Positions 5,614 to 41,815 of a DNA stretch of 64,000 bases are shown piece after piece. The DNA comes from Chloroflexota bacterium (GTDB lineage Bacteria > Chloroflexota > Dehalococcoidia > Lucifugimonadales > UBA3495): NCBI GenBank assembly GCA_009840165.1, contig VXOG01000091.1:7914-71913 (forward strand), given 5' to 3'. A model generated the notes under the pieces. It was not told the origin of the DNA, did not search any database, and saw only the letters and a list, made by a program, of their open reading frames with translations. How positions within the stretch are numbered: the first letter of the stretch is position 1; every line of letters begins with the position of its first letter. The position numbers and the translations under genes are program-made.

Positions 5614-6727
5614 CTATGAACTGGACAAGCAAACCAAGGCTATCGCTGTTCGCAAAGTCAAAGAGGCAGCCTCGAAACAGTACCTGCTGACGGAGCGGGA
5701 TGATGAGTTGATGCGCGGAATCGAAAGCCACGCCGCGACCGCGATAGAGTGGTGAAACTCGAGACGTTTCACGATGCGCCTGGCCTCGGCGGCGGGGAAG
5801 GTTTCGTAGAGGGACGCCATGAGGTGGATGTTCAGGTTGTCGAGAACGACGCGGACCACGGTAGCGTCGGGGTAGGCGGTGTCCACCAGCCATTGCATCT
5901 GGTGGGCGAAGTCCTGCATGGTGCGCCGCTCCGTGATGGCCACGTGGCGCCAGCAGGCCAGTGGTTCACAGAACAGGAAGAGGTGGCGAGTGCCACCACG
6001 GCGGTACTCGTAGTCCTGGCGCCTGGGCCGGTCCGGCTGAGCCGGCAAGGGTTCTCGCACATCCGCCAGTCCGCCTGCGGCGGAGGTGGAGGTCTCGTCG
6101 AAGCACACCACCGGACGCCTGGGGTCGTAGGGTTCGGCGTAGAGGTCCAGCACGTCCTCCATAGCCGCCACAAACTCCCCGTTCATCTGGGAGATGCATC
6201 CGTCTCTGGCGGACTGCTTTCGCCAGGGCTTGAGGGTGTTTTTTCAGCCGCAGCCTGACCGTCTCATACGACAAGCTATCCACCAGGCCCAATTCCACCA
6301 CCTTGTCGGCCAGCAGCCACAGAGTCCAGTGATCATGGCCCTCAGGGGCGTCGCGGCACGCCAGAGCGATCAGAGCCTGCCCCGTACTTGATACGGGGTG
6401 GGCTTCACCGCGATCATCCAGCTTGCGATATCGATTGGCCTGGGGATGATCGTACAGTACCCCATCCAAACCTTCTTCCGCGTACCGCCCCTTGATGCGA
6501 AACACCGTGCGGGGCGACGTGTCCAGCGCCGCCGCCACTTGGGACGCGCTCCAGCCTCCGGTGGTGAAGCCTTGCCCGTCAACGCTCCTCACGACTACCC
6601 AATCGCTATCACCCGACTGAGTGAAGAATTCTGCAAGGTTTTCGCCGTGTCCGAGGCTCCGGCACTTCGGTTGCCTTTCGGTGCCAACATATTGCAGCAG
6701 CAGAGCCATCCCGATGATGAAACCCAC
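5614..6727 (-). mobile_element. IS630-family transposase gene, frameshifted and decayed
   Basis: The N-terminal HTH part (...SASQVAAALDTSPRTVFRIKGRYAEEGL...HWTLWLLADKVVELGLVDSLSYETVRLRLKK) and the DDE part (KNTLKPWRKQS..MNGEFVAAMEDVLDLYAEPYDPRRPVVCFDETS...DYEYRRGGT...VVLDNLNIHL...LEFHH) are in different frames. They switch at the T6/A6 run 6239-6244. The C-terminal WLNxxEIE block is degenerate (AWLSIPRIN). Ends and IRs not determined. Confidence 0.75.
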
Positions 6728-33529: not shown

Positions 33530-33556
33530 GGGGATGGTCTCCTTGGGGCCGGGATT

Positions 33557-33585
33557 CTGGATTCCCGCTTTCGCGGGAATGACGG
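33557..33585. repeat. Family A palindromic repeat (single copy)
   Basis: ctggattcccgctttcgcgggaatgacgg. Confidence 0.9.
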
Positions 33586-33629
33586 TAGGGGGTGCTGTAA
33601 TGACGGTAGAAGTGCGGGTATGAAGGAGT

Positions 33630-35871: not shown

Positions 35872-35946
35872 GGTTGCCCTCCTGTTGTTGCGGCGTAGCG
35901 TCGGCGGAAACTATACCCCAGCCCAGGCGGACGCTCAACTGCGCTA

Positions 35947-35987: not shown

Positions 35988-36347
35988 ATGGCCGAACTGT
36001 ACAGTGAGAAATGCACCGCGTGCCGGCGGGATTCGCCCCACGTTACCAATGAAGAAATCGCCGTGCTGCATCCGTCGGTGATTGAATGGGAATTGATTGA
36101 CGAGTCGGGGATTCCCAAGCTGGACAGGCAGTTCAAGTTCCGCAACTTCGTGCAGGCCCTGGAATTCACTAACGCGCTGGGCGAGCTGGCCGAGTCGGAG
36201 GGCCACCACCCGCGCCTGACCACCGAATGGGGCCGCGTCAGCGTAACCTGGTGGACCCACAAGATCCGCAACCTGCACCGCAACGACTTCATCATGGCCG
36301 CCAAGACCGACCAACTCTACGCGGAGCATGGGCCGGCGGAGGGGTGA
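35988..36347 (+). CDS. phhB: Pterin-4-alpha-carbinolamine dehydratase (PCD/DCoH)
   Basis: 119 aa. FKFRNFVQALEFTNALGELAESEGHHPRLTTEWGRVSVTWWTH. Confidence 0.88.
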   Translation: MAELYSEKCTACRRDSPHVTNEEIAVLHPSVIEWELIDESGIPKLDRQFKFRNFVQALEFTNALGELAESEGHHPRLTTEWGRVSVTWWTHKIRNLHRNDFIMAAKTDQLYAEHGPAEG

Positions 36348-36355
36348 ATCAACGG

Positions 36356-36838
36356 ATGGACTTGAACACCCGTAAGGAGCGGTTTTCACTGGCATACATC
36401 AATGCGGTGGCAACTTATGCCGACTGCGAGGTGATTGAGCCGAAGGTTGACCGAGGCAGCGTAGATGGCATACTGAAACGGGCAACAATCGAGGAAATCA
36501 TCGGTTTCCAGGCCAAGGCCACATCCCGACATATTGTGAGCCGCGACGGTAGGCAGTTGATTTTCCCACTGCCGATGCGCGATTACGATAACCTGCGAAC
36601 TCCCGTAACCCCGTTCATCCTGATTGTTGTGCTGCTGCCGGAGGACGAAACAGAATGGCTTGCGCAGACCCATGAAGAACTTTGCTTGCACTACTGCGCC
36701 TACTGGCTGTCTCTGGCTGGTCGCCCGGAAGTAACGAACATCAACAACGTGACGGTACACGTTCCAACAACGAATGTTTTCGGCAGCAACCAATTAGCCG
36801 ATTTAATGGACAGAGCGGCAAGAGGTGAAACACTATGA
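36356..36838 (+). CDS. DUF4365-like restriction-endonuclease-fold protein
   Basis: 160 aa. RKERFSLAYINAVATYADCEVIEPKVDRGSVDGIL...IIGFQAKATS. The stop overlaps the next start (ATGA at 36835-36838). Confidence 0.55.
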   Translation: MDLNTRKERFSLAYINAVATYADCEVIEPKVDRGSVDGILKRATIEEIIGFQAKATSRHIVSRDGRQLIFPLPMRDYDNLRTPVTPFILIVVLLPEDETEWLAQTHEELCLHYCAYWLSLAGRPEVTNINNVTVHVPTTNVFGSNQLADLMDRAARGETL

Positions 36839-38139
36839 TGAGGGTGCAGATCCGCGACAAAGAAGCGCTGGAATCCCTGACCCCTGAAAACTTGCGCGCG
36901 TATCTGGAGTCGCAGGGTTGGGGGAACGATCGCCCATGGGGACAGTGGGGTACGATTCTCAGCAAGGAACATAAAGGCAAACTGTGGGAGATTGTGATCC
37001 CGCTACGGGATGAGGGCTACGGTTACGCCGAGTTTATGGGCTTGATGGTTGCCACGCTGTCCGACGCTGAAGAACGGTCACAGTTGGAAGTGTTCTATGA
37101 CCTCGCGGGCGCGGGCAGCAAAGTAACAGCGCAGGCTAATCACAAAGGAGATGTCAGGATGACTACCGCCGATCTGGGGCGCTTGGAACAGGTTGCTCTC
37201 CGCAATATCTGGATTACTGAAGCGCAGGATTTCACGCCGTGGCTGGCGCAGCCGGATAATCTGGCAGTTCTATCTGATACCCTCGGTATGGAGTTGGCAA
37301 CGGAAGGAACTGAGCGGGGGGTCGGTCCATTCCGCGCCGATATTCTCTGCCGGGATACATTGGACGACTCGTGGGTGTTGATTGAAAATCAACTGGAACG
37401 CACCGACCATAGTCACTTGGGACAATTGCTGACCTACGCTGCTGGATTACAGACCGTGACTATCGTCTGGGTTGCGGAAAAGTTTACCGATGAACATCGT
37501 GCCGCCCTGGACTGGCTGAATGAAATTACCAACGAAAAGTTTCGCTTTTTCGGCCTGGAGATCGAGCTCTGGCGGATCGGCGATTCGCCAGCAGCACCGA
37601 AGTTCAACATCGTGTCGAGGCCAAATGACTGGGTAAAAACCACGCGGGAAGCGGTCAGAAAAATCCCAGACAGTTCCTTGCAGAACGAACGTTTCTGGGA
37701 CAAGCTGGACCAACTTTTCGAGGAAAGAGGTAGCAAAACGAGGGTGAGGACCTCGCGAACCCTACCGTGGACAGCTTACCGACTTGGACTAGCAGATTTC
37801 CACGTGGAAGCTACTCTGCGGCGGCAAGCGAAGGATATTGAAGTACACCTTAGGCTTAAAGGGCCGCACTCCAAGACCCATTTTGCGCTGCTGGAGAAAG
37901 AGAAAGAAGCTATTGAAGGTGAAATCGGCGCAGCCCTCGAATGGGCAGAGATGCCGGATCAAGAGGTCAGTCGTATCAATTTGCGGCTTGACGCCGACCC
38001 AACCGATGAATCGCAATGGACGACGCAGTTGAAGTGGACGGCCGAGACGTTGGAAAAGTTCGATAGCGCATTTCGCGAACGGGTCAGGAGTCTCAATGCC
38101 GCAGATTGGCAACCCGACGATGCAACGCGGGAAGAATAG
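36835..38139 (+). CDS. PD-(D/E)XK nuclease-like + DUF4268 protein with extra 115-aa N-terminal domain
   Basis: 434 aa. The core starts near MTTADLGRLEQVALRNIWITEAQDFTPWLAQPDNLAVLSDTLGMELA...VGPFRADILCRD...WVLIENQLERTDHSHLGQLLTYAAG. C-terminal ...RFWDKL...ALEWAEMPDQEVSRINL matches the DUF4268 pattern. The N-terminal MMRVQIRDKEALESLTPENLRAYLESQGWGND... is unassigned. Confidence 0.6.
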   Translation: MMRVQIRDKEALESLTPENLRAYLESQGWGNDRPWGQWGTILSKEHKGKLWEIVIPLRDEGYGYAEFMGLMVATLSDAEERSQLEVFYDLAGAGSKVTAQANHKGDVRMTTADLGRLEQVALRNIWITEAQDFTPWLAQPDNLAVLSDTLGMELATEGTERGVGPFRADILCRDTLDDSWVLIENQLERTDHSHLGQLLTYAAGLQTVTIVWVAEKFTDEHRAALDWLNEITNEKFRFFGLEIELWRIGDSPAAPKFNIVSRPNDWVKTTREAVRKIPDSSLQNERFWDKLDQLFEERGSKTRVRTSRTLPWTAYRLGLADFHVEATLRRQAKDIEVHLRLKGPHSKTHFALLEKEKEAIEGEIGAALEWAEMPDQEVSRINLRLDADPTDESQWTTQLKWTAETLEKFDSAFRERVRSLNAADWQPDDATREE

Positions 38140-38167
38140 CCCTGCCACACAAGGAGTCCACCACCAA

Positions 38168-39190
38168 ATGAAAGTTGTCTATTCCCTGAAATCCCGCGAC
38201 CTGAACGCTGTGGCCGCCGAGGCGGCTTGGGCGGAATCGGCGGGCTACGACGGCGTGTCCACCAACGAGACGGCCCATGACTCGTTCCTGCCGCTGGCGG
38301 TGGCGGCCACGTCCACCAGCCGGGTTACGCTGGAAACCCACGTGGCCATCGCCTTCCCGCGCTCACCCATGGTGGTGGCCTACACTGCTCGCGACTTGCA
38401 GGACGGCAGCGGCGGACGGCTCCGCCTGGGTCTGGGCACGCAGGTGAAGGGACACATCGAGCGACGGTTTTCGACCCGCTGGACCGGCTCGGCGGGTTCA
38501 CGGCTGCGCGAGTACGTGCAGTCGCTGCGTACCATCTGGAATTGCTGGGACACGGGCAGCAACCTGGAGTACGACGGCGATTTCTACCAGTTCTCGCTGA
38601 TGACGCCGTTCTTCAGCCCTGGGCCGAGCGAGTACAACCCTCCGGAGGTGTACACCGCCGCCGTGAACGGCTACAACTGCCTGGTGGCCGGCGAGGTCAG
38701 CGACGGGCTGATGCTGCACAGCCTCACCTCGCCGGAGTACATCCGGCAGGTAGTGCAGCCCAACGTGGCCGAGGGCGCGCGGCGGGCCAGACGCAACCCG
38801 GAGGACGTGAACATCGTGGGCGGCGGGTTCATCGTGACCGGGCCGAATCAGGAAGCCATCCGGGAGCAGGCGGAGGTGACGCGACGGCGCATTTCGTTCT
38901 ACTCGTCAACCCGCACCTACTTCCCGGTGCTGGAGTGCCACGGGTTTGAGGACATCGGCGTGGAGCTACACCGCCTGTCCCGAGAGGGCAAGTGGGACGA
39001 GATGCCCGGGCTGGTGCCGGATGAGATGCTCCACGCTTTCGCCACCATCGGTGAGTACGATGAGATCGCCGGCAAGTTCCGCGAGAAGTACGGTGACCTA
39101 GTGGACGAGATGCACTTCTCGTTTGACGCTCCCACCGACGCCGAGCAGGCGCAATTACGGCGCATCGTGCGGGACCTCCAGGATCTGTAA
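38168..39190 (+). CDS. LLM class F420-dependent oxidoreductase
   Basis: 340 aa from MKVVYSL (aaggag RBS). AESAGYDGVSTNETAHDSFLPLAVAA...LRLGLGTQVKGHIERRF. Confidence 0.8.
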   Translation: MKVVYSLKSRDLNAVAAEAAWAESAGYDGVSTNETAHDSFLPLAVAATSTSRVTLETHVAIAFPRSPMVVAYTARDLQDGSGGRLRLGLGTQVKGHIERRFSTRWTGSAGSRLREYVQSLRTIWNCWDTGSNLEYDGDFYQFSLMTPFFSPGPSEYNPPEVYTAAVNGYNCLVAGEVSDGLMLHSLTSPEYIRQVVQPNVAEGARRARRNPEDVNIVGGGFIVTGPNQEAIREQAEVTRRRISFYSSTRTYFPVLECHGFEDIGVELHRLSREGKWDEMPGLVPDEMLHAFATIGEYDEIAGKFREKYGDLVDEMHFSFDAPTDAEQAQLRRIVRDLQDL

Positions 39191-39196
39191 TAATTT

Positions 39197-39301
39197 TCGT
39201 CATTCCGACGAAGGCCGGAATCCAGGTTAGTATGCCGCAAAGACCGTCTGGATTCCCGCTTTCGAGGGAATGACAGTCCTTCGACAGGCTCAGGATGAGC
39301 G
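39197..39301. repeat. Family A convergent pair (39197-39225, 39248-39276) plus family F motif (39277-39301)
   Basis: tcgtcattccgacgaaggccggaatccag; ctggattcccgctttcgagggaatgacag; tccttcgacaggctcaggatgagcg. Confidence 0.9.
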
Positions 39302-40029
39302 CCAATAACGCTGTGAATGGCCAACGGTTCAAGCTGGGCAGCGAGTCTGAGCTGACCTACCGGCTGAAGTGGGAAGCGTGGGAATGGCTGTACTGCGTCG
39401 CACGCTGCCGTTGCATCGGGCTGGAGGTGCGGTTGCAAGGGCCGTGGGGTTCTATCGTTGACGTAGTGGGAATCGGGCCGAATAACACGATACATGCGGT
39501 GGAGGTCAAAGTCTCCCGCTCCGATTTCGCCCGTGATAACCATACCGAGGCGGATATAGCGCGCCTGCGTAAACGCGCCGGCTCCCTGGCGCGGCGGGTC
39601 GAGTTGGCGGACGCGCCAGACTACCGGACCGCCGCCGGAGACCTGGAACGGCTGTTGCAAGAGCAGGAACGACTGCGTGACCGCCTGGCGACGGTATCCA
39701 CCAAGTTCCACGATTCGCGATTCCTGAGCATCGCCGATTACCATCACATCATGGCGCCCAGAGGCGTCGTGCTGGCGGAGATGCTGCCCGACGGATGGGG
39801 TCTGCTGGAGCCAGGGCCGCGTGAGGTCGTGAAGGCACCGGCCAAGACCGTGCGCAAGAACGGAGGCATCATGGCCAACGCGCTGCGGGCGGTGGCGCGG
39901 GCCAACGCCGCGGCCATGATGCGGGCTCACGGCGTGCGATGGAGCGAGGACGGCGCGGAGTTTCCGCGTCCGGGCGACGAGCGATTGCCCGCATACGTGC
40001 AGCGGCAACAGACGACAGACGAAACGTAA
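39295..40029 (+). CDS. MmcB-like PD-(D/E)XK nuclease-fold protein (tentative)
   Basis: 244 aa. GSIVDVVGIGPNNTIHAVEVKVSRSDFARD (D...E-x-K), followed by a coiled-coil-like insert. The annotated ATG lies inside a dispersed repeat, so the true start is uncertain. Confidence 0.45.
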   Translation: MSANNAVNGQRFKLGSESELTYRLKWEAWEWLYCVARCRCIGLEVRLQGPWGSIVDVVGIGPNNTIHAVEVKVSRSDFARDNHTEADIARLRKRAGSLARRVELADAPDYRTAAGDLERLLQEQERLRDRLATVSTKFHDSRFLSIADYHHIMAPRGVVLAEMLPDGWGLLEPGPREVVKAPAKTVRKNGGIMANALRAVARANAAAMMRAHGVRWSEDGAEFPRPGDERLPAYVQRQQTTDET

Positions 40030-40670: not shown

Positions 40671-41072
40671 CTATTCCGCACTCAACTCGGGGTCATAGAT
40701 TACCGTGATTCGTCGATCTTCCGAAGTAACAATCGCCATATCGGATGGCGGCAAACTGCCGGGACGGAAATTCTGTAGATGTGCCATCAGTTCTTGTCCG
40801 AAAGCTTGGGCTTGATCATTCTGTGCTTTGTTCTTGCCGACTTTGTACAGGGTGTATCCAACGCCTGCAACAGTTCCACCCACAAGTATGGCAGGACCAA
40901 GCAAACCAAGACCGACCGCGCCGAACGCTCCCGCCACTCCTATCCTTGCCAAAGCGCCACCGAGCAAAGTCCGTCCGATCAGCATGGCTACCCCGCCTGC
41001 CACTACGGCCCCAGCCCCAGAAGCCACAGCTAACTCCTTCCCTGACTTGCGCAACTTCTCGACGTTCGGCAA
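40671..41072 (-). CDS. Glycine-zipper membrane protein, hypothetical
   Basis: 133 aa with TTG start after gaagggagag. Gly/Ala-rich TM segments: AVASGAGAVVAGGVAMLIG...GVAGAFGAVGLGLLGPAILVGGTVAGVGY. The region looks lower in GC. Confidence 0.45.
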   Translation of the reverse strand: MPNVEKLRKSGKELAVASGAGAVVAGGVAMLIGRTLLGGALARIGVAGAFGAVGLGLLGPAILVGGTVAGVGYTLYKVGKNKAQNDQAQAFGQELMAHLQNFRPGSLPPSDMAIVTSEDRRITVIYDPELSAE

Positions 41073-41146
41073 CTCTCCCTTCGTTTCGTATTGAACAATT
41101 AATCTTTGTTCGGGGAGCGTCAGCTCGAATGGTTCGTAATAAGCAG

Positions 41147-41815
41147 TTATTCAGGTTGCGCATCCCGGTCAGCAAGTTCGTACCAGTAGATTTCGCCTCT
41201 GTCGATAGTTTGCTGGACGCGGCGGTCGTTGCGGACACTAGCGACGGCGGAGTGGGTCGGTTGGCCGGTGAAGCGGGCCAGAAATTCGGCGTTTCTGATG
41301 GCGCGACGGGTATCGCGCTCGTCCCCGGTGTTCGAAGCTTCCACGGCGATATAGTGAATATTTCCGTCCGCATCGGCGGCTTCTATGACCAAATCAGCGC
41401 GCCGAAAACTTTGCAGTTCGGGCGTGGCTATGCCGGAAGTATCCGAGGTGTGCAGCAATTCCCTTAGGTCATCCCTGCTCAATACGCGTATCATCTGGAA
41501 CCCCATATTCTCGGCTATATCAGCGGCTTCGCCAATGGCGGTGTTCCGGGCGTGTTCGCCCCGCATATTCGAGATGTCGTCCTCAATCCTGGAAAACCGC
41601 CGGTCGGTTCGCTCAATGAAACCCTCCACACGGTCGTTGAACCGCCGCTGCTCCTCGATAAACTGCTCGGTGGTCGCCACGAAACGGTCGAACCGGGCAG
41701 GCAGGTTTATCAGTTCCTCAGTGAGGATTTCGCGGCGCACGGCTTCCTTCCACTCCGGGTTTTCGCGGAGCACGCGCAGCAGGTCTTCCGGTGTACTGAT
41801 GGTGACCATGGTCAA
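41147..41815 (-). CDS. Coiled-coil + C-terminal PD-(D/E)XK-like domain protein, hypothetical
   Basis: 222 aa. N-terminal helical/coiled region, then RADLVIEAADADGNIHYIAVEASNTGDERDTRRAIRNAEFL. Resembles a family common in cyanobacteria and Deinococcus-Thermus. Confidence 0.4.
   Translation of the reverse strand: MTMVTISTPEDLLRVLRENPEWKEAVRREILTEELINLPARFDRFVATTEQFIEEQRRFNDRVEGFIERTDRRFSRIEDDISNMRGEHARNTAIGEAADIAENMGFQMIRVLSRDDLRELLHTSDTSGIATPELQSFRRADLVIEAADADGNIHYIAVEASNTGDERDTRRAIRNAEFLARFTGQPTHSAVASVRNDRRVQQTIDRGEIYWYELADRDAQPE

Follow-up and report, generated by a model that had tools for sequence, protein, structure and literature searches.

A PDC-M02/PDC-S11 chimera coupled to a DUF4365 nuclease gene at a fast-turnover site of sponge-associated Dehalococcoidia

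Closest described systems and composition of the locus

The locus described here is a pair of genes, designated A and B, in a stretch of 64,000 nucleotides (nt) of Chloroflexota DNA from a sponge metagenome (the window); L-numbers denote the compared genome loci and P-numbers the representatives of protein clusters. Its closest described relatives are SPARDA, the predicted candidates PDC-M02 and PDC-S11, and MdgA. DUF4365, the family of gene A, is the DREN nuclease of SPARDA, with catalytic residues D41, Q60 and K62; on its own SPARDA DREN is an inactive monomer, and it becomes a collateral nuclease when filament formation forces it into tetramers (PMC12205087). The PDC systems are 145 predicted candidates identified through "guilt-by-embedding" in BREX, DISARM and type I restriction-modification loci; PDC-M02 corresponds to cassette CAS_00021 of Payne et al., with 894 instances in RefSeq (bioRxiv 10.1101/2024.01.29.577857), and our literature search found no paper mentioning it. 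MdgA is described as NucS combined with DUF4268; it protects Escherichia coli against T4 and Mu, not against T4-GT7, degrades T4 DNA in vitro and is inactivated by an E77A substitution (bioRxiv 10.1101/2025.02.28.640651).

The locus is a lineage-specific chimera of the two computer-predicted candidates PDC-M02 and PDC-S11, and hence a variant of already catalogued candidates, not a new kind of system (Table 1). The original prediction, made from the letters and open reading frames (ORFs) alone, had found no named match; PADLOC assigns A and residues 1-97 of B to PDC-M02 and the remainder of B to PDC-S11. The overall layout was read correctly: both genes are intact and co-directional, the stop of A and the start of B share the ATGA at 36835-36838, and the pair forms a lower-GC islet (guanine plus cytosine 0.53-0.56 over 36250-38250 versus 0.62-0.69 in the flanks) between a pterin-4a-carbinolamine dehydratase gene and a luciferase-like (LLM) oxidoreductase gene.

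Gene A matches Pfam DUF4365 along its entire length (E-value 1e-16), confirming the pattern first noticed by eye, and also the PADLOC model PDC-M02A (1e-46, residues 2-158 on model positions 4-165 of 167). Residues D37, Q52 and K54, invariant in 29 homologues, are the counterparts of D41, Q60 and K62 of SPARDA DREN (PMC12205087), so that A shares with SPARDA the DUF4365/DREN effector family and its D..QxK catalytic motif. It is, however, a separate protein of 160 amino acids (aa), whereas DREN in SPARDA is a domain of the sensor-bound subunit; neither A nor B has a prokaryotic Argonaute (pAgo) or APAZ match in PADLOC or Pfam, and the sensor proposed below is a nuclease dependent on DNA modification rather than a guide RNA complex. 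A longer ORF from 36227 enters the upstream gene, and the homologues of A begin at the 36356 ATG.

Protein B opens like the second protein of PDC-M02. Its residues 2-98 match only positions 1-97 of the ~380-position PDC-M02B models (PADLOC, 3e-19), and gene order, strand and the 4-nt overlap are those of the canonical pair. The ~280 C-terminal residues of canonical M02B are replaced by an unrelated, whole PDC-S11 protein: residues 109-419 match PDC-S11 model positions 1-312 of 313 (PADLOC, 2e-117), and a purpose-built hidden Markov model (HMM) of the canonical M02B C-part gives no match to B. The closest stand-alone PDC-S11 protein, P0015 (327 aa, from a close relative), is 73% identical, its Met1 falling exactly opposite M109. 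In the AlphaFold prediction (mean predicted local distance difference test, pLDDT, 84) B has three folded units, residues 1-97, 113-265 and 279-430, and the pLDDT falls below 50 at residues 98-112. An extra domain ahead of the usual start, as first suspected, is thus real: a folded unit, a disordered linker, and then the residue corresponding to the start of stand-alone homologues. Modelled alone, the N-domain reaches a pLDDT of 87 and a predicted template modelling (TM) score, pTM, of 0.79, with the topology alpha-alpha-beta-beta-beta-alpha-alpha; a Foldseek search of this model against the PDB found no fold match (best E 0.12, TM-score <=0.40).

In the PDC-S11 part, the DUF4268-like C-terminus of the original prediction is firmly established, since Pfam DUF4268 covers residues 285-416 (1.9e-21); the best PDB folds of this domain are YbjN and a type III secretion chaperone (E ~3e-3, probability 1.0, target TM-score ~0.5). 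The PD-(D/E)XK-like core is upheld by conserved residues and by the model, whereas its fold matches to restriction enzymes are weak (EcoT38I and Ecl18kI at probability 0.5-0.8). E160, D169, E184-N-Q186, D191, H192 and Q197..Y201 are 100% conserved among the fused and stand-alone homologues examined, and lie in the AlphaFold model on an alpha-beta-beta-beta-alpha-beta unit typical of PD-(D/E)XK; D169, E184 and Q186, together with the Q197xxxY201 motif, are the putative catalytic residues. A and B thus both look like PD-(D/E)XK-type nucleases, of families without detectable profile similarity, and the two different nuclease folds originally suggested are not borne out. A diverged DREN was considered for the core of B and rejected, hhalign of the PDC-S11 and DUF4365 profiles giving no relationship. 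NCBIfam searches gave no meaningful match for A or B, and PDB sequence and profile searches with A, B, the DUF4365, canonical M02B and PDC-S11 profiles and a PDC-S02 fusion gave nothing significant.

PDC-S11 apparently belongs to the same class as MdgA, an anti-phage nuclease of type IV-like character whose dependence on DNA modification is known from T4 versus T4-GT7. B has the D/E-N-Q core and the DUF4268 domain, the mutagenic primer for MdgA E77A encodes VIV(E>A)NKLDD where B reads VLIENQLERTD (bioRxiv 10.1101/2025.02.28.640651), and E184 of B is residue 76 when counted from M109, against E77 in MdgA. The two differ in the motif, ENQ in B and ENK in MdgA, and in their setting: PDC-S11 and MdgA stand alone, whereas in B the module is fused behind another domain and coupled to a DREN nuclease.

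A constant unit of A and N-domain with exchangeable C-modules

The partnership of A with the N-domain was surveyed by a DUF4365-profile scan with one genome per species, which gave 80 loci, mostly of Chloroflexota, with some from Competibacteraceae, Chromatiales and Latescibacterota and one from a cyanobacterium; the downstream genes were typed with purpose-built HMMs. An N-domain gene lies directly downstream in 78 of the 80 loci, the distance being -4 nt in 51, -7 nt in 19 and -1 nt in 4, and the overlapping A-then-B geometry recurs in 74 of these 78. A reverse search from the N-domain finds DUF4365 upstream in 6 of 7 loci, plus both of two metagenome loci. The only exception, L003, keeps the first 45 DUF4365 codons (5867-6001, 84% identical) directly ahead of its N-domain gene; an internal deletion has removed the catalytic part of A, which is a secondary loss. 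The pairing of DUF4365 and N-domain genes is therefore near-obligatory and translationally coupled. The canonical form occurs, for example, in Thiorhodococcus drewsii AZ1 (L087), and the pairing extends to the temperate Leptospira phage LE1 (L090, NC_048892.1, 2989-4667), which thus carries PDC-M02: its two proteins, listed as hypothetical in the annotation, are gp38, of the DUF4365 family, and gp37 (381 aa), an M02B of canonical build with the N-domain. The association of DUF4365 with DUF4268, by contrast, is not general: it is confined to one Dehalococcoidia hotspot, and thousands of PDC-S11 homologues stand alone.

The N-domain occurs in only 284 clusters among 1.84 billion representative proteins, nearly always at the N-terminus, and so is not a common housekeeping domain. 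The best 150 of these clusters comprise 75 canonical M02B, 48 N-only (some of which may be fragments), 5 PDC-S02, 3 PDC-S11 and 17 other architectures, with no Rosetta-stone fusion of DUF4365 and N-domain among them. The other C-modules include TPR, a pAgo-N-like region with HATPase_c_4, DUF433, YcxB and DUF2299. The N-domain is also found on a PDC-S11 core with another tail, and about 18 protein clusters have the full architecture of B, at 53-74% identity. In P0283 (419 aa) the N-domain precedes a region like the N-terminal part of pAgo and of Aga SIR2-PNTD (4e-11, 8e-10), together with HATPase_c_4, a possible evolutionary link between the N-domain and Argonaute-associated modules. An N-domain scan of IMG/VR found nothing, and a metagenome scan yielded two loci only. 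By structure, the stand-alone 101-aa protein of Nodularia phage vB_NspS-kac65v162 (BFVD A0A482MK90) matches the N-domain (TM-score 0.80, E 1.4e-5); tblastn with it found no match. This protein may belong to a pair carried by the phage, or serve it as a decoy against the system.

All PDC-S11 and PDC-S02 fusions sit between the pterin dehydratase and LLM genes in sponge-associated or marine Dehalococcoidia. The LLM protein is 82-96% identical across all hotspot loci, and the pterin dehydratase gene borders the variable site in L001-L005, L007-L026, L029, L034, L042 and L056. Five alternative C-modules are fused to the N-domain at this hotspot (Table 1) in sponge-associated Dehalococcoidia. In one PDC-S02 representative, P0123, the N-domain is followed by a whole PDC-S02 (residues 109-428 on model positions 1-323 of 324), which also matches Mrr_cat and a type IV methyl-directed restriction endonuclease-like family; P0122 carries the PDC-S02 front half without its nuclease. 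These sister chimeras share with the window the A plus N-domain unit, the chromosomal site and a fossil Shine-Dalgarno (SD) sequence and Met in the linker, and differ in the captured module, which is another front (putative reader) domain with an Mrr nuclease, or that front alone. A HEPN/MNT-type pair (NTase_sub_bind and a Polbeta nucleotidyltransferase, with a weak PDC-S09 match) shares the hotspot upstream of the DUF4365 gene in L001 (4785-5518), L002, L003, L007-L009, L011, L012, L014 and L021; it does not occur in the window.

The turnover at this site is fast: genomes whose LLM proteins are 93-96% identical to that of the window hold five different contents. Compared with the window, A and the N-domain are 92% and 91% identical in L010, where the C-module is PDC-S02; 92% and 92% in L029, where it is a PDC-S11 core with a helix-turn-helix (HTH) tail; and 89% and 91% in L004, where it is the PDC-S02 front half, whereas the loci of the window's own architecture reach only 66-74% in A and 54-64% in the N-domain. 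On a tree of A plus N-domain the C-type changes 13 times over 27 tips (shuffled mean 16.9), and the window's clade of four (99% support) contains four C-types. In the same pairs the synonymous divergence (dS) of C is far above that of A and N, as in L013 versus L014 (A 0.19, N 0.33, C 2.56). A and the N-domain have thus been co-inherited as a unit, behind which the C-module has been swapped repeatedly. The ratio of nonsynonymous to synonymous divergence (dN/dS) is 0.06-0.24 for A, 0.11-0.29 for the N-domain and 0.03-0.32 over all three parts, which places A, N and C under purifying selection, with none decaying.

The linker records how the modules were joined. In the window an AAAGGAG, followed after 8 nt by the ATG of M109 at 37159, makes a textbook ribosome-binding site; the lone PDC-S11 gene of L007 has the identical AAAGGAG 9 nt ahead of its start, and the PDC-S02 fusions L003, L018 and L042 show the same layout of SD and Met at the junction, which explains the semi-conserved "HKG" peptide amid otherwise variable linkers. 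SD-like 5-mers precede 5 of 13 junction Mets, compared with 4 of 163 other internal Mets. The linker is therefore the translated former 5' untranslated region (UTR) of a captured stand-alone gene, with SD and original ATG retained. Because the ribosome-binding site and the ATG at M109 are still in place, the internal start in the window looks fully functional, and a free PDC-S11 protein of 326 aa may also be made; in several alleles (L004, L012, L019-L022 and L034) the internal Met or the SD is gone, and these are fusion-only. In a strain ~95% identical to the window, positions 37101-37225, covering the linker and junction, are replaced by 129 unrelated bases in an otherwise collinear sequence, which again marks the linker as an exchange point.

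Table 1. Genes and domains of the locus in the window, and alleles of the hotspot
Feature	Positions in window	Strand	Loci	Description
Pterin-4a-carbinolamine dehydratase gene	35991-36347	+		Left hotspot flank; Pfam Pterin_4a, 8.7e-28
Gene A	36356-36838	+		160 aa; DUF4365/DREN PD-(D/E)XK nuclease, stand-alone (PDC-M02A)
Gene B	36835-38139	+		434 aa; chimeric, joining the M02B N-domain through a linker to a complete PDC-S11
N-domain of B (residues 1-97)	36835-37125	+		PDC-M02B N-terminal domain; proposed docking module for A
Disordered linker (residues 98-108)	37126-37158	+		Former 5' UTR of captured gene; AAAGGAG at 37144-37150
PDC-S11 putative nuclease core (residues 109-265)	37159-37629	+		Begins at ancestral start codon M109
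DUF4268 domain of PDC-S11 part (residues 279-430)	37669-38124	+		Pfam DUF4268; pLDDT >90
Luciferase-like (LLM) oxidoreductase gene	38168-39190	+		Right hotspot flank; Pfam Bac_luciferase, 1.8e-56
Allele: canonical pair			L016, L017	
Allele: A + N-only			L015	
Allele: A + N-PDC-S11			window, L001, L005, L013, L014, L025	
Allele: A + N-PDC-S11 core with HTH-like tail			e.g. L029	
Allele: A + N-PDC-S02			e.g. L010	
Allele: A + N + PDC-S02 front half only			e.g. L004	
Allele: lone PDC-S11			L007-L009	Without A and N-domain; close relatives

Possible mechanism and alternative explanations

The reading towards which we lean, though with modest confidence, is that the locus is a chimeric PDC-M02 variant in which the sensor is interchangeable, here the type IV-like PDC-S11 nuclease, and the N-domain serves to dock DREN to it. 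The N-domain would bind the DREN nuclease and so couple it to whatever module stands behind the N-domain; the PDC-S11 module would recognise modified phage DNA and itself cut it. Several B molecules assembling on modified DNA would bring the tethered DREN protomers together, and the DREN assembly would then degrade DNA non-specifically, as a second, abortive-infection-like layer. The idea of a sensor that gathers DREN protomers is borrowed from SPARDA. Such recruitment and clustering is favoured because DREN needs oligomerisation for activity, because the nuclease-less PDC-S02 front-half alleles always adjoin a DUF4365 gene (intact in most, frameshifted in L034), which fits DREN as the effector, and because the sole DREN-losing allele, L003, owns an Mrr nuclease. 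The original prediction had taken the N-domain for an unassigned sensor-like domain; it is instead the conserved N-domain of PDC-M02B, and its constancy while the C-parts vary fits a docking or adaptor module better, the PDC-S11 part being more likely the sensor. A broader and more tentative extension, which we regard as possible but doubtful, makes the N-domain a portable DREN-docking adaptor, an Argonaute-free counterpart of APAZ: any sensor behind it, be it the 280-aa C-part of M02B, TPR, the PDC-S02 front half or a whole type IV restriction nuclease, would gain a collateral DREN layer, and new two-tier systems would arise by read-through from the N-domain into the 5' UTR of a stand-alone defence gene next to it.

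Several points weigh against the docking model. A and N may co-vary simply because they are physically linked, and with an internal ribosome-binding site and ATG in place the PDC-S11 part might act alone, the fusion being functionally irrelevant. L003, L029, L034, L047 and L056 have a frameshifted or truncated gene A, which is thus sometimes dispensable, although assembly errors are an alternative cause for some of these copies. PDC-M02 being a candidate system, its role in defence is itself inferred; the kinship of MdgA and PDC-S11 is drawn from domain names in common, a catalytic Glu at matching positions (E77/E76) and a peptide of nine residues encoded by a primer; and the PD-(D/E)XK assignment of the PDC-S11 core comes without a significant Pfam, PDB-sequence or strong fold match.

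The pair might instead behave like a toxin-antitoxin module, the N-domain neutralising a DREN toxin until the C-module senses phage DNA or protein, whereupon the N-domain lets go, DREN oligomerises and the cell is killed. Minimal intact pairs of DUF4365 and an N-only protein (102-130 aa) do exist in L015, L064 and L075, N-only architectures are numerous among the best N-domain clusters, the translational coupling is tight, much as in type II toxin-antitoxin pairs, and the 101-aa cyanophage match could be a decoy or an inhibitor. We nevertheless find inhibitor release unlikely, though with its opposite polarity it is the chief competitor of the docking model. SPARDA DREN alone is monomeric and inactive, which leaves no obvious need for an antitoxin; many of the N-only matches may be fragments from short contigs; and L003 lost A and kept B, the reverse of the usual order of toxin-antitoxin decay, though not an impossible one. 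Less likely again is a neutral read-through, in which a minimal A plus N module came to lie beside a resident PDC-S11 gene, the stop codon was lost, and PDC-S11 works on, alone and uncoupled. The perfect AAAGGAG ahead of M109, the disordered linker, the stand-alone PDC-S11 at the same hotspot in the close relatives L007-L009 and the sufficiency of a PDC-S11-type protein (MdgA) for defence all agree with such an origin; yet the fusions have been kept open across loci with saturated synonymous sites, with the N-domain under the constraint given above, the same type of fusion arose with PDC-S02 and other modules, fusion-only alleles without internal Met or SD exist, and the PDC-S02 front-half and DUF4268-less variants would be crippled as independent genes and are conserved all the same.

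That the pair has no part in defence, being either housekeeping or DNA-repair (NucS-like) nucleases co-transcribed with their metabolic neighbours or decaying junk, appears very improbable. In favour of this view, the genes are packed without terminators among housekeeping genes: the spacers measure 8 nt (pterin dehydratase gene to A) and 28 nt (B to LLM gene), and a promoter and terminator scan of the pair region found nothing above chance and no convincing promoter or terminator. A ~3-kb contig from another run (X2), ~95% identical to the window, covers A, B and the LLM gene, and run X2 is probably complementary DNA (cDNA), because a neighbouring contig in it ends in a SMART cDNA adaptor at 35874; with the library type off record, this transcript evidence for A-B-LLM is only suggestive. 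Against a housekeeping role, presence and content vary among genomes with LLM proteins at 93-96% identity, the GC content lies below that of the flanks, the PADLOC models match strongly and a canonical pair is carried by a temperate phage; dN/dS well under 1 argues against decay. The anti-phage character first supposed for the pair fits these strong candidate matches, the fast-turnover hotspot and the phage-borne copy.

Neighbouring features and significance

Other features of the window lie close to the hotspot. A repetitive extragenic palindromic (REP)-like element, GGATTCCCGCTTTCGCGGGAATGAC, has two intergenic copies 5.7 kb apart, at 33556-33586 and 39247-39277, and in the source sponge metagenome its copy number is extremely high (contig depth ~4000 versus 60 for neighbouring genes). 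Just past the LLM gene, a 244-aa ORF (39295-40029, plus strand) without Pfam or PADLOC match shows, in IVDVVG...HAVEVKVSRSDF, a D..E-V-K arrangement resembling PD-(D/E)XK; most hotspot relatives have this ORF, but L004 and L007-L009 do not. A second lower-GC islet (0.55-0.58) at 40671-41815 on the minus strand, between isochorismatase and PIG-L genes, contains two ORFs without Pfam or PADLOC matches, one of 222 aa and one of 133 aa that is glycine-rich and membrane-like. In relatives the slot is occupied by DUF4357, PaREP1 or NYN genes, and it thus appears to be a second variable site.

Together with its sister alleles, the locus amounts to a domain-swap series made by nature, with a constant DREN and N-domain and an exchangeable remainder, and this series gives a concrete, testable model of the wiring of the abundant candidate PDC-M02. 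PADLOC-type rules on domain coverage would probably label the locus a lone PDC-S11 and miss the pairing. The chimera is real and selected, and what makes the locus valuable is that it shows how PDC-M02 is built from modules and how simply a gene can be captured. If the adaptor idea is true, Argonautes need not be the only sensors able to drive DREN nucleases, a type IV restriction enzyme encoded by a single gene could be turned into a two-layer system, and translation of a 5' UTR into a linker would offer an easy way of building new immune architectures by gene fusion.

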